DNA of 32,000 nt from Cystobacter fuscus (lineage in GTDB: Bacteria; Myxococcota; Myxococcia; Myxococcales; Myxococcaceae), in NCBI RefSeq assembly GCF_044360685.1, contig NZ_CP043491.1, positions 3,916,026 to 3,948,025 of the forward strand, read 5' to 3'. Each line of letters begins with the position of its first letter. Position 1 is the first letter of the stretch. The notes beneath the pieces were generated by a model. It was not told where the DNA came from and searched no databases. It saw only the letters and a list, made by a program, of their open reading frames with translations. Both the position numbers and the translations under genes were made by a program. Positions 26,061 to 27,774 of the stretch are shown piece after piece.

Positions 26061-26975
26061 TCAATCCAGGAAGCGGCGCTCCCAGCGGCGAAGCTCTTCG
26101 GGGACCTCTTCGTTCGGCAGATAGCGTCGTTGATAGAGGAAGGGCTCCAGGACGCGCGCCAGTTCCCGGTAGGCGGGGAGCGTGCGTCCCTCCTCGAGGT
26201 CACCGGCGTCAGGATGGGCGCCGAGGGTGACGACGGCCCGCCCCTCCTCCATTTCCTGAACGGTGATGTCTGGCGAGTGCAAGCGGACTCGGAGGCCCGC
26301 GATGCCCCCCAATGCGTCCAGCACGGGAGGGCCCAGGAAGTTCAGCCAATGTACACCGTCGACCCTCGTTCCAATGTCCAGGGTGGGAAGGGCAGAACGC
26401 GCGATGTCCATGCCTGGATACCGGTTCGCTCTCGCGCGGGACACCTTCTCCAGAGACAGGAGGTCGCTCTGGGCATGAAGGGAGAGGCCTGCATGCCCAG
26501 AGCAGAAAGGAAAGCACGACGCCATTTCCATCACGAGTTCACGCACTTGCGCGAAGCCGCGCTCTTTCAGGTACTCCGTGGGCAGCCAGCAAGACATCGC
26601 CGAGACCCATGTCGAAGTGTCTCTGATGAAGGGGAGGGGAGTAAACGAGCTGCCATGGTAGATGAAGCGATAGCGGGCTTGGACGGCCGAGGTGTCTGCC
26701 AGCTCAATATGGGCTTGGGTGGGATGTCGAAGCTCATCTCGGATGTGCTTCCAGGCGGTGGAATCGAGATTTTGCCAGTACCCGTCCAGGTCTGCGTACA
26801 AGCCAAGCGCACCGGGCTCCACCGCGTTCAGATAAAGTTCGAGCGAGCGCAGGGCCCCTTTCACTATCTGCGCGTGAGAGTGCCGTGTATAGAGTGTAAT
26901 GCTGAATCCGTCTCGAAGGACCAGTAGTCCCTTCTCTGAATAGATGCGAATATGGGGCCAGGGCTCGCTACTCAT
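26061..26975 (-). CDS. DUF3396-like immunity protein (family I recall as type VI immunity to VRR-Nuc/PD-(D/E)xK toxins, 'TsiV')
   Basis: Track ORF 26061-27101, trimmed to ATG 26975, which overlaps the toxin stop by 8 nt. The C-terminal pattern GVHWLNFLGPPVLDALGG...VVTLGAHPDAGDLEEGRTLPAYRELARVLEP...LRRWERRFLD matches my memory of the DUF3396 consensus (VNWLT.LG...LGG...aG..P..GD...P.aY...W..RF). GC is about 57% (line 26701). Confidence 0.75.
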   Translation of the reverse strand: MSSEPWPHIRIYSEKGLLVLRDGFSITLYTRHSHAQIVKGALRSLELYLNAVEPGALGLYADLDGYWQNLDSTAWKHIRDELRHPTQAHIELADTSAVQARYRFIYHGSSFTPLPFIRDTSTWVSAMSCWLPTEYLKERGFAQVRELVMEMASCFPFCSGHAGLSLHAQSDLLSLEKVSRARANRYPGMDIARSALPTLDIGTRVDGVHWLNFLGPPVLDALGGIAGLRVRLHSPDITVQEMEEGRAVVTLGAHPDAGDLEEGRTLPAYRELARVLEPFLYQRRYLPNEEVPEELRRWERRFLD

Positions 26976-27774
26976 GAATGACTCCCAAGCGTGGCATGAC
27001 ACGTGTGGGCTTGATGGAGAAAGCCCATTCGTATACGGTCCCCTGATCCAGTCCCGAGTATGGGTGGGTTGGTGGGTAACGAGGCCAATTGGGTATCTCA
27101 TCGATATTCATACATGGGAATTTGAAGTCATAGACGGCCTGCGCACGGAGCGGATCTCCCTGATGAATCACGACATCGGGTTTGACTGAGCCCTTCAACT
27201 CACCCGAATTGCCCGACTCATCCAGTGCCTGCTCCTCCTCGCGGCTCACCTGTTTCCAGCGATTCTGACGCGAGTCGTAGCGGTAGCGTGGTTCCAGACT
27301 GAATCCTCCCGGACGCAGTTTGCTCAGTCGCTCCTCCACGCACTCGAGCGCCTCTTCATGCATCTCCGTTCCCAACTGCATGGCCCATGTCATCCCCTTG
27401 CTTCTCGCGTTCTTCGCCCATTGCTTGCACTCGTCGGCAGTGGGGGTCAAACTGGCGAAGTCCCCCTCGTGCCGGAGAAGGACTTCCGAACGGGCGATGT
27501 CCGCGCATTCTGACAACGTGCGCTCGATGTCGTTTCTCGTCGGAACATCGAGCGCTACTTTCAGGACGGCCGTCGCCGAAGCGATTTCCTTGCCGTAGAG
27601 GGCGACGCACCCCGAGAGGCTGTGCCGACAGGCCGCCGAGGGCGAGTCGAAGCTGTAGCGGAAGGAATCGCTCCTGCCCGGTGACATCGCACACGCCGGG
27701 AGGAGAACGACGAGAGCCCACGCGGCGGCCCTGTTCGAATTGTCTGTGCTTCGCGATTCGCGTTTATTGTTCAC
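26968..27774 (-). CDS. lipoprotein toxin with C-terminal PD-(D/E)xK nuclease-like domain (SitA-like polymorphic toxin candidate)
   Basis: The GTG at 27774 overlaps the upstream TGA (GTGA). Signal peptide MNNKRESRSTDNSNRAAAWALVVLLPAC, with a lipobox-like LPAC (Cys28, +2 Ala). The nuclease signature is a helix with acidic residues (TEMHEEALECVEE), then KPD(199-200)VVIH...VYD(216)FK(218)FP, which is PD...DxK. GC of lines 27001 and 27061 is 55% and 48%. Confidence 0.72.
   Translation of the reverse strand: MNNKRESRSTDNSNRAAAWALVVLLPACAMSPGRSDSFRYSFDSPSAACRHSLSGCVALYGKEIASATAVLKVALDVPTRNDIERTLSECADIARSEVLLRHEGDFASLTPTADECKQWAKNARSKGMTWAMQLGTEMHEEALECVEERLSKLRPGGFSLEPRYRYDSRQNRWKQVSREEEQALDESGNSGELKGSVKPDVVIHQGDPLRAQAVYDFKFPCMNIDEIPNWPRYPPTHPYSGLDQGTVYEWAFSIKPTRVMPRLGVIHE

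Follow-up and report, generated by a model that had tools for sequence, protein, structure and literature searches.

The 32,000-nucleotide (nt) stretch of Cystobacter fuscus DNA analyzed here (the window) carries on its minus strand two overlapping genes that directly follow a gene for a signaling protein. The first encodes a predicted lipoprotein whose C-terminal domain contains a PD-(D/E)xK-like motif, and the second encodes a member of the TsiV/DUF3396 immunity family; they are referred to below as the toxin gene and the immunity gene. Overall, the favored reading of this arrangement, held with moderate confidence, is a two-gene polymorphic toxin-immunity cassette for intercellular antagonism. 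The features that bear most directly on it are listed below by their positions in the window, with lengths of proteins in amino acids (aa).

26968..27774, minus strand: toxin gene, an open reading frame (ORF) of 268 aa with a GTG start, encoding a lipoprotein precursor with a C-terminal PD-(D/E)xK-like domain; PADLOC PDC-M20A
27771..27774, minus strand: GTGA, in which the stop of the upstream HD-GYP/DUF4388 gene overlaps the toxin start, seen in the sequence
27691..27774, minus strand: type II signal peptide and lipobox, residues 1-28, read from the sequence
27577..27648, minus strand: conserved post-anchor motif, residues 43-66, D-S-P-S-A-x-C-R-x5-C-x-A-L-x-G-K-E, with D43, C49 and C56 invariant
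26971..27567, minus strand: toxin domain, residues ~70-268; matches to the relatives P0268, P0139 and P0157 start at query residues 68-81
27121..27180, minus strand: putative catalytic core P199-D200...D216-F-K218, from invariant columns and the secondary structure of the model
27031..27045, minus strand: Q244-x3-Y248 in the helix after the core, Q244 at least 90% conserved and Y248 invariant
26968..26975, minus strand: ATGAGTAG, the 8-nt overlap of toxin stop and immunity start; homologous loci overlap by 1-8 nt
26061..26975, minus strand: immunity gene, an ORF of 304 aa, TsiV/DUF3396; PF11876; PADLOC PDC-M20B

The toxin gene begins, as a preliminary description of this DNA had already noted, with a GTG (27774-27772) that shares bases with the TGA of the upstream gene (27773-27771), the two forming the tetranucleotide GTGA. 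GTG 27774 is the sole in-frame start that retains the signal peptide MNNKRESRSTDNSNRAAAWALVVLLPAC, in which an n-region containing K4, R5 and R8 precedes a 10-residue h-region (AAAWALVVLL) and the lipobox L-P-A-C28. GenBank calls the 268-aa product (WNG16047.1), unlike RefSeq, whose WP_395846823.1 (239 aa, 100% identical) begins at M30 and drops both the signal peptide and the lipobox. The longer form is supported by the invariance of the lipobox Cys in 48 homologues, by the alignment of the PADLOC family model, which begins at residue 16, and by Cystobacter ferrugineus, where AAAWALVVLLPAC is retained behind a wholly different upstream sequence and start codon. An N-terminal truncation like that of the RefSeq call is apparent in many family members in public databases.

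The lipoprotein signal is a property of the family as well as of this gene. Cys28 is invariant in the 48-sequence alignment, and a lipobox can be detected in 202 of 335 family members, the remainder being mostly truncated gene calls. In the present protein the positions that matter for sorting are occupied by Ala (+2) and Arg (+7), and none of the 202 relatives has Lys at +2, so the preliminary observation of a lipoprotein-type signal with Ala rather than Lys at this position extends to its homologues. Under the rule applied to SitA1, in which proteins with neither Lys at +2 nor Ala at +7 are sorted to the outer membrane (PMC5562445), the absence of +2 Lys predicts outer-membrane sorting. The first gene product is thus very probably a lipoprotein, and its predicted destination is the outer membrane. 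In the stretch that joins the lipid anchor to the toxin domain, the post-anchor motif at residues 43-66 is the sole family-specific segment, with a predicted local distance difference test score (pLDDT) of ~50 in the AF2 model.

The immunity gene starts at an ATG at 26975 and has 8 nt (ATGAGTAG) in common with the toxin stop, an overlap that the preliminary description had placed correctly. Its product matches PF11876 (TsiV, “Type VI immunity for VRR-NUC”) with an E-value (E) of 1.7e-50 and 172 bits against a cut-off of 25, and also the solved TsiV protein PA0821 (PDB 7DRG) with E 6.4e-5. Its earlier assignment to DUF3396, the immunity family for VRR-Nuc effectors, is therefore secure. Proteins of the DUF3396 family have been found experimentally to neutralize TseV2 and TseV3, PD-(D/E)xK effectors of type VI secretion systems (T6SS) (PMC9635880). 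The 304-aa protein is without a signal peptide and is thus predicted to be cytoplasmic.

The association of the two genes recurs throughout the family. In each of the 10 distinct loci compared, under every N-terminal architecture, the toxin domain is directly followed by a TsiV homologue, usually with an overlap of 1-8 nt. In four of the loci the toxin and immunity proteins are respectively 56% and 51%, 51% and 45%, 44% and 43%, and 41% and 47% identical to the present ones, and to judge from these values toxin and immunity diverge together. Because both genes have hundreds of homologues and are always adjacent, their pairing is not a matter of chance, and the proposal that they constitute a toxin with its downstream immunity gene can now be held with high confidence.

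Searches by sequence recovered ~370 homologues of the toxin, and a profile of the core domain recovered 566; the matches in a library of 1.84 billion representatives amount to 167 clusters (50% identity). Named members all belong to the Cystobacterineae (Cystobacter, Archangium, Vitiosangium, Hyalangium, Melittangium, Stigmatella, Corallococcus, Pyxidicoccus and Myxococcus). Lengths are mostly 250-290 aa, most members are ~260-aa lipoproteins, and the lipobox Cys and the DxK motif stand a median of 196 residues apart. Copy number and distribution are uneven: C. fuscus has a second toxin paralogue at another locus (41% identical), several genomes of Archangium carry at least two copies, and the pair is found in some isolates of Myxococcus xanthus and M. 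virescens.

A few relatives carry the toxin domain in other settings. In P0268 it stands behind a Tox-PAAR-like domain (PF13665, 9e-37), with a gene for a DUF2169 adaptor upstream, on a contig rich in insertion sequences; this layout is the TseV-type T6SS architecture. In P0139 the domain stands behind DUF2380 (2.5e-19), the Pfam family to which the SitA6 lipoprotein toxins belong (PMC12077181), and the protein's own signal peptide is of type I. P0157 contains the domain within a 696-aa secreted protein. Decayed copies also occur among metagenome proteins: P0264 joins the N-terminal half of the toxin to the C-terminal end of TsiV, a deletion fusion, and P0196 is a toxin copy frameshifted after the first core helix. 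The possibility that the N-terminal Cys motif is a module also carried by other toxin domains was considered and rejected, the partial matches being frameshifted or deleted copies.

Within the toxin domain, K198-P199-D200 and D216-F217-K218 map to nt 27180-27121 and give the arrangement PD200-x15-D216-F-K218. P199, D200, D216 and K218 are invariant across the 48 homologues, as are, among other residues, C28, D43, C49, C56, C90, G135, E137, H139, C145, E161, C221 and Y248; C116 and Q244 are each at least 90% conserved. In 18 distant cores, the invariant positions are C90, C116, G135, C145, P199, D200, K218 and C221, and D216 is nearly invariant, with one replacement, by Glu. In the AlphaFold model pLDDT averages 84, being >90 from residue 80 to 268 and ~50 for residues 1-68. 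The elements of the model are, in order, a helix (130-153), strands (158-176), a strand (201-204), a strand (211-217), a helix (244-252) and a strand (257-260). Strand 201-204 starts right after D200, and strand 211-217 ends at D216-x-K218. This order of elements and this placement of residues in the model fit the PD-(D/E)xK core. In the helix that follows, Q244-x3-Y248 resembles the QxxxY motif of RecB-type PD-(D/E)xK nucleases. From the invariant residues and the helix-strand order, the toxin domain is most likely a DNase of the PD-(D/E)xK phosphodiesterase kind, and the motifs, the predicted topology and the immunity partner together make it quite probable that the toxin is a nuclease.

The cassette differs in composition from the DNA on either side. 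GC content is 59.1% in the toxin gene and 61.1% in the immunity gene, and 68-72% in the flanking genes; GC at third codon positions (GC3) is 0.71 for the cassette versus 0.91-0.93 for the flanks, and the same contrast is found in another genus. When the cassette is taken in 60-nt lines, the median GC is 0.60 (range 0.43-0.75), and 41% of the lines fall below the 5th percentile of the window. The preliminary description had counted 48-57% by hand; the deficit relative to the neighboring genes is real, and less extreme than that count. The genes and repeats surrounding the cassette are as follows.

21144..27770: island of 6.6 kb, between the convergent 3′ ends of the HD-GYP and TatD core genes
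27771-29726, minus strand: signaling gene, 651 aa, with MshEN (binding cyclic di-GMP, c-di-GMP), HD-GYP-type HD_5 and C-terminal DUF4388/PatA_N domains
20265-21143, plus strand: TatD core gene, convergent with the signaling gene
22701-26009, plus strand: gene of 1102 aa for a zinc-ribbon/class III cyclase/AAA_16 (STAND)/TPR protein, converging on the toxin-immunity genes
26017..26049: 33-nt repeat, 31/33 identical to positions 27864-27896 of the HD-GYP gene (blastn E 8.6e-8), a remnant of a duplicated tail

The island thus contains the toxin and immunity genes, the cyclase-STAND-TPR gene and two small ORFs. Fourteen orthologous loci of the signaling gene were examined, and the toxin, immunity and cyclase genes are absent from 13 of them (Archangium, Vitiosangium and related metagenome-assembled genomes, MAGs). 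In five Archangium and Vitiosangium loci, the signaling gene and TatD end ~10-60 bp apart; since TatD directly follows the signaling gene in these cassette-free loci, C. fuscus carries the 6.6 kb between them as an island. Conservation in synteny and at native GC content, which the preliminary description had named as an argument against a mobile cassette, is not what the relatives display, given the 13 loci without it and the GC3 of 0.71. The same HD-GYP/TatD junction holds a gene for a 1015-aa NB-ARC/STAND NTPase in Archangium lansingense (L005:7963-12700), and genes for a PhyH dioxygenase and a 1110-aa TPR-CHAT protein in an Archangium MAG (L010:7966-12200). With different inserts in these two other species, the junction is a hot spot for conflict-type genes. 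No integrase or transposase is present within the island. The neighbors of the cassette differ at every locus, and in its foreign composition, varied neighbors and absence from orthologous loci the cassette behaves as mobile DNA.

The two small ORFs, both on the minus strand, are one of 197 aa (21226-21819), with CxxC motifs and no family match, and one of 126 aa (21883-22263), odd in composition, with GC of 0.41, 0.39 and 0.84 at the first, second and third codon positions, and with a weak match to PUD1_2 (5e-4). The 1.5 kb at 21144-22650 in which both ORFs lie is missing from C. fuscus strain NCWS and from C. ferrugineus. The 1102-aa cyclase, which has a double zinc ribbon, matches the PADLOC models for Pycsar cyclases (PycC), with E down to 7e-20; in NCWS its gene is 82-93% identical in several tblastn pieces, possibly with frameshifts, next to an HD-GYP gene that is 98.6% identical.

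A step in the history of the insertion is preserved in C. ferrugineus, in which ~1 kb lies between the signaling gene and the cassette downstream of it (97% nt identical to the present one), the toxin having its own start. Here the signaling gene is followed by a 27-nt fragment of the TatD 3′ end and then by a ~1-kb block with a truncated helicase gene (283 aa, L029:6992-7843; P-loop GLAGSGKT; PADLOC “Helicase” PDLC03002, 5.8e-65, model positions 2-249/707). Next comes a second TatD-3′ fragment, which at the meeting point shares GCCGCCGCGT with the signal-peptide coding region of the toxin, and after it the toxin gene, the immunity gene, more TatD fragments, a 294-nt duplicate of the signaling-gene tail (98.3% identical), the cyclase gene and TatD. 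At this locus (L029:6643-10040) the inserted blocks are bordered by scars, comprising the 294-nt duplicate of the HD-GYP tail together with three or more TatD-3′ fragments. In the C. fuscus window the ~1-kb helicase block is gone, with the result that the toxin GTG sits on the upstream stop. Duplication has left traces in the window too, in the 33-nt repeat and in a 74-nt copy of positions 28040-28113 at 22495-22568. The nested partial duplications of both flanking genes would fit repeated recombination at the junction, for example through single-crossover integration of circularized fragments, and point to several rounds of it at this one junction, and not to a classical mobile element.

An earlier idea, that the 33-nt repeat marks an insertion site inside the signaling gene and that the inserted element supplied the tail of that gene, was rejected. 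The tail (...PTV*) is conserved in 14 of 14 orthologues and, on this comparison, is native to the signaling protein; in addition, the repeat copy is missing from strain NCWS and is a remnant of the 294-nt duplicate seen in C. ferrugineus. NCWS also differs in the toxin gene itself (L004:7953-8759), which has a stop at codon 161 (FSL*PRYRY), the position of the invariant E161 and upstream of the catalytic core; its immunity gene is intact and 96% identical. The nonsense codon reflects either loss of the toxin with immunity kept or an assembly error.

These features can be assembled into a provisional scheme. The toxin would be exported by Sec, lipidated on Cys28 and, for want of Lys at +2, sorted to the outer membrane, with a Cys-containing linker of ~40 residues preceding the ~200-residue toxin domain. 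The TsiV/DUF3396 protein would bind and block the toxin in the cytoplasm; given that the toxin is exported and the antidote stays behind, the antidote would be useful mainly against toxin re-entering the cytoplasm from neighboring cells. Intercellular antagonism is on these grounds the likely role of the pair. In a traAB-bearing myxobacterium, outer-membrane exchange would be the favored route of delivery, as for SitA, with outer-membrane vesicles as the alternative. C. fuscus and Archangium are reported to carry traAB alleles (PMC6372800). Outer-membrane exchange as the specific means of delivery, which is argued by analogy, is put forward tentatively and may well prove wrong. As to its origin, the cassette would have circulated horizontally and landed in the recombination hot spot between two convergent core genes, after which a deletion in C. 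fuscus set the toxin start on the stop of the c-di-GMP-type signaling gene. The toxin gene is now probably co-transcribed with and translationally coupled to that gene, and its expression probably depends on it.

Several observations weigh against the toxin-immunity reading. The window is without traAB, T6SS or mobile-element genes, and the toxin is without an escort domain, the part that takes SitA toxins through the inner membrane (PMC8546572, PMC10433427). Several homologous loci sit among phage-defense genes, and PADLOC lists the pair as a defense candidate. The four core cysteines, C90 (~27505-27507), C116 (~27427-27429), C145 (~27340-27342) and C221 (~27112-27114), are kept even in the PAAR-like T6SS relative and might be paired in two disulfides or bind a metal. 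The database searches with the toxin belong under the same head. In Pfam the toxin was without a match at E up to 1 and 48 family members were without one at E up to 10, in searches whose HMMER filters discard very weak matches. Of the two proteins for which a Pfam comparison had been proposed, the immunity protein is therefore recognized (PF11876, 1.7e-50) and the toxin is not, VRR_NUC included. NCBIfam and PHROGs held nothing meaningful for the toxin, and searches of PDB sequences with the toxin alone or as a profile were without a match. Foldseek reached a best E of 0.58 against the PDB, with NucC, D212, BsaXI and LmuA among the non-significant matches, and of 0.18 against BFVD, where ranks 1 and 3, also non-significant, are annotated “PD-(D/E)XK nuclease superfamily”. 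Toxins adjacent to TsiV from Burkholderia, Rhizobium and Agrobacterium plasmids served for comparison. The 202-sequence hidden Markov model (HMM) of the family scores these proteobacterial toxins no higher than shuffled copies, and hhalign of the family against two of them gives probabilities <1%. A pattern that is visible by eye, hDV-x13-15-[YI][DE][FM]KF, is common to both groups; the Burkholderia toxin family has two relatives only in the database, and no TseV-type profile was obtainable from it. As there is no significant sequence or structure match, the nuclease assignment rests on the invariant motifs and the predicted topology. What stands of the original proposal of a PD...DxK nuclease is the core itself, which is present and invariant across the family; the corresponding HMM or structural match to a nuclease did not materialize.

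The same observations are the starting point for a reading in which the toxin is not a nuclease, PD...DxK belonging instead to another active site, or to a structural or metal site together with the four cysteines, and toxicity being of some other kind. No nuclease is matched significantly by HMM or by fold, the acidic residue of helix 1, E137, is not conserved in distant members, and the four invariant cysteines are unaccounted for. The invariant core residues and their placement in the model speak for a nuclease, and we regard this departure from it as quite improbable. If the protein is a nuclease, it might conceivably act at the cell surface or in vesicles, in predation, scavenging or the turnover of extracellular DNA, with an intracellular inhibitor that only protects the producer before export, as in barnase-barstar and NucA-NuiA; it would then be no toxin of kin discrimination. 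An exported lipoprotein with a cytoplasmic inhibitor fits this description, myxobacteria do export hydrolases in outer-membrane vesicles (PMC10433427), and the missing escort suits an enzyme that never enters a recipient cytoplasm. However, such an enzyme would be expected to be encoded by a stable core gene, and this family is patchy, multi-copy, foreign in composition and relocated from genome to genome, with the toxin sometimes decayed while the immunity gene persists. In addition, proteins bound for Sec export stay unfolded while in the cytoplasm and should seldom call for an inhibitor of their own that diverges with them, and the domain doubles as a T6SS effector module; a surface or vesicle role is accordingly judged rather unlikely.

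A role in phage defense is suggested by the genomic context. The pair would then be an anti-phage system (PDC-M20), acting either as an envelope-anchored nuclease that cuts incoming phage DNA under the restraint of protein B or as a module of the toxin-antitoxin or abortive-infection type. Both proteins match PDC-M20A and PDC-M20B end to end (1e-85 and 9.3e-115), and PDC candidates lie in BREX, DISARM or type I restriction-modification (RM) loci. The pair of Pyxidicoccus xibeiensis (L002:1135-10651) is located between the genes for a 1280-aa HIT/helicase/S24 protein that matches type IV methyl-directed restriction enzymes (2e-99) and the helicase DpdE (E 0), that of M. xanthus adjoins a PLD/DrmC-like gene, and that of C. 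ferrugineus adjoins the truncated defense-type helicase; the STAND and CHAT genes at the same hot spot in other species point in this direction as well. Yet defense islands commonly gather interbacterial toxin-immunity cassettes too, so context of this kind cannot tell phage defense from antagonism, and it was by context that PDC-M20 was nominated. Moreover, the conserved Sec/lipoprotein signal takes the toxin away from the cytoplasmic site of action of abortive-infection toxins, the family of its partner is experimentally established in interbacterial immunity, and a relative joins this toxin domain to a T6SS PAAR-like domain, next to a DUF2169 adaptor. A role in phage defense therefore seems improbable. 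The overlap with the upstream gene raises a different question, namely whether the HD-GYP/DUF4388 protein and the toxin are functional partners, c-di-GMP signaling being deliberately coupled to toxin production. The GTGA overlap is found in both C. fuscus strains, the present one and NCWS, and a promoter and terminator scan, otherwise uninformative, found no promoter-like or terminator-like site between the two genes. Against this, the overlap is confined to one species: in C. ferrugineus the cassette lies ~1 kb off, behind the truncated helicase gene, with the toxin's own start, 13 orthologous loci are without the cassette, and homologous cassettes elsewhere follow unrelated genes. Partnership is thus highly improbable. 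The translational weld that the preliminary description had emphasized is a genuine overlap, and, from the spacing and separate start in C. ferrugineus, a product of a C. fuscus-specific deletion rather than a conserved coupling; it is recent and incidental, secondary to the cassette.

If the toxin-immunity reading is correct, one toxin domain and one immunity family occur in three formats, as a short lipoprotein, as a SitA6-like or otherwise secreted protein and as a T6SS PAAR-like effector, and would provide a clean natural experiment on the movement of polymorphic toxin modules from one secretion system to another. As a short lipoprotein, the toxin would call into question the need for a ~375-aa escort domain in the entry of myxobacterial lipoprotein toxins. 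The phage-defense candidate PDC-M20 of PADLOC would probably be an interbacterial toxin-immunity pair, which matters for counts of defense systems in myxobacteria. The series from C. ferrugineus through C. fuscus to NCWS would trace the scarring of the locus by insertion, its trimming, its joining to a host gene and the inactivation of the toxin with immunity kept. As regards novelty, the TsiV immunity family and the PADLOC listing are known; the toxin domain, probably of PD-(D/E)xK type, is unclassified, is not in Pfam and is a candidate new family.

Among the closest known systems, PDC-M20 of PADLOC consists of this pair of protein families, arranged in the same order, with both HMMs matched over their full length: PDC-M20A (PDLC04510) aligns with residues 16-266 of the toxin (E 1e-85), and PDC-M20B (PDLC04512) with the immunity protein from end to end (E 9.3e-115). 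PDC systems are untested candidates, nominated because their members lie in BREX, DISARM or type I RM loci (Payne et al., 2024, bioRxiv 10.1101/2024.01.29.577857). In contrast to that context-based prediction, the lipoprotein signal, the TsiV identity and the PAAR-like and SitA6-type relatives point to interbacterial antagonism. A further resemblance is to the Plu1493-like clades of PD-(D/E)xK toxins (PoNe, IdrD and Aave_0499; grouped in PMC9635880), which are likewise short, highly divergent modules that are missed by VRR-Nuc models and use several secretion routes. The immunity families usual in those clades differ, and no sequence link to them was found.

The TseV/TsiV effector-immunity pairs of T6SS (Salmonella bongori TseV1-4 and Pseudomonas aeruginosa PA0822/PA0821; Hespanhol et al., 2022, PMC9635880) share with the cassette the immunity family, the position of the immunity gene directly downstream and a near-identical D...DxK spacing (D230...D245-V-K247 in TseV3). 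The present toxin differs in its four invariant cysteines and in being unrecognized by VRR_NUC (PF08774) or any other Pfam model, and homology of its toxin domain to TseV was not demonstrated with the HMM and hhalign comparisons to TsiV-linked toxins. Because it has a lipoprotein signal in place of a PAAR-like domain, it cannot be a T6SS substrate; the PAAR-like layout is found in the distant relative P0268 only. The cassette is therefore related to TseV/TsiV through its immunity protein and the domain architecture of its relatives, and its toxin fails the VRR-Nuc test.

The comparison with SitA/SitI had been proposed in the preliminary description. Like the SitA proteins (PMC5562445, PMC8546572), the toxin is a myxobacterial lipoprotein without +2 Lys, whose C-terminal toxin domain recurs in other conflict systems and whose overlapping downstream gene encodes a cytoplasmic immunity protein. 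Multiple divergent copies per genome, foreign composition and restriction to taxa with traAB are further points in common. Unlike the SitA cassettes, the present one is not on a prophage or transposon and is without an escort domain. The six families of SitA are defined by escort domains of ~375 aa (PMC8546572), and the toxin, having none, lies outside all of them. As the preliminary description had remarked of this short protein, nothing resembling an escort is apparent: residues 29-69 (~40) alone separate Cys28 from the toxin domain, with no match to DUF2380 (SitA6) or any other Pfam family. The likeness to SitA/SitI thus extends to the lipoprotein toxin and its downstream cytoplasmic immunity gene, and stops short of membership in the known families. 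It is conceivable, and on balance unlikely, that the cassette represents a seventh, escort-less class of outer-membrane-exchange (OME) toxin, a ~260-aa lipoprotein with a two-Cys, 40-residue linker and a TseV-like nuclease that is passed between kin by TraAB. In that event, the toxin domain or the short Cys motif would carry its own function for entry across the inner membrane, and the DUF3396/TsiV fold would serve T6SS- and OME-delivered versions of one toxin lineage. By analogy, then, the cassette may work as a SitA/SitI pair does, though from outside those families.

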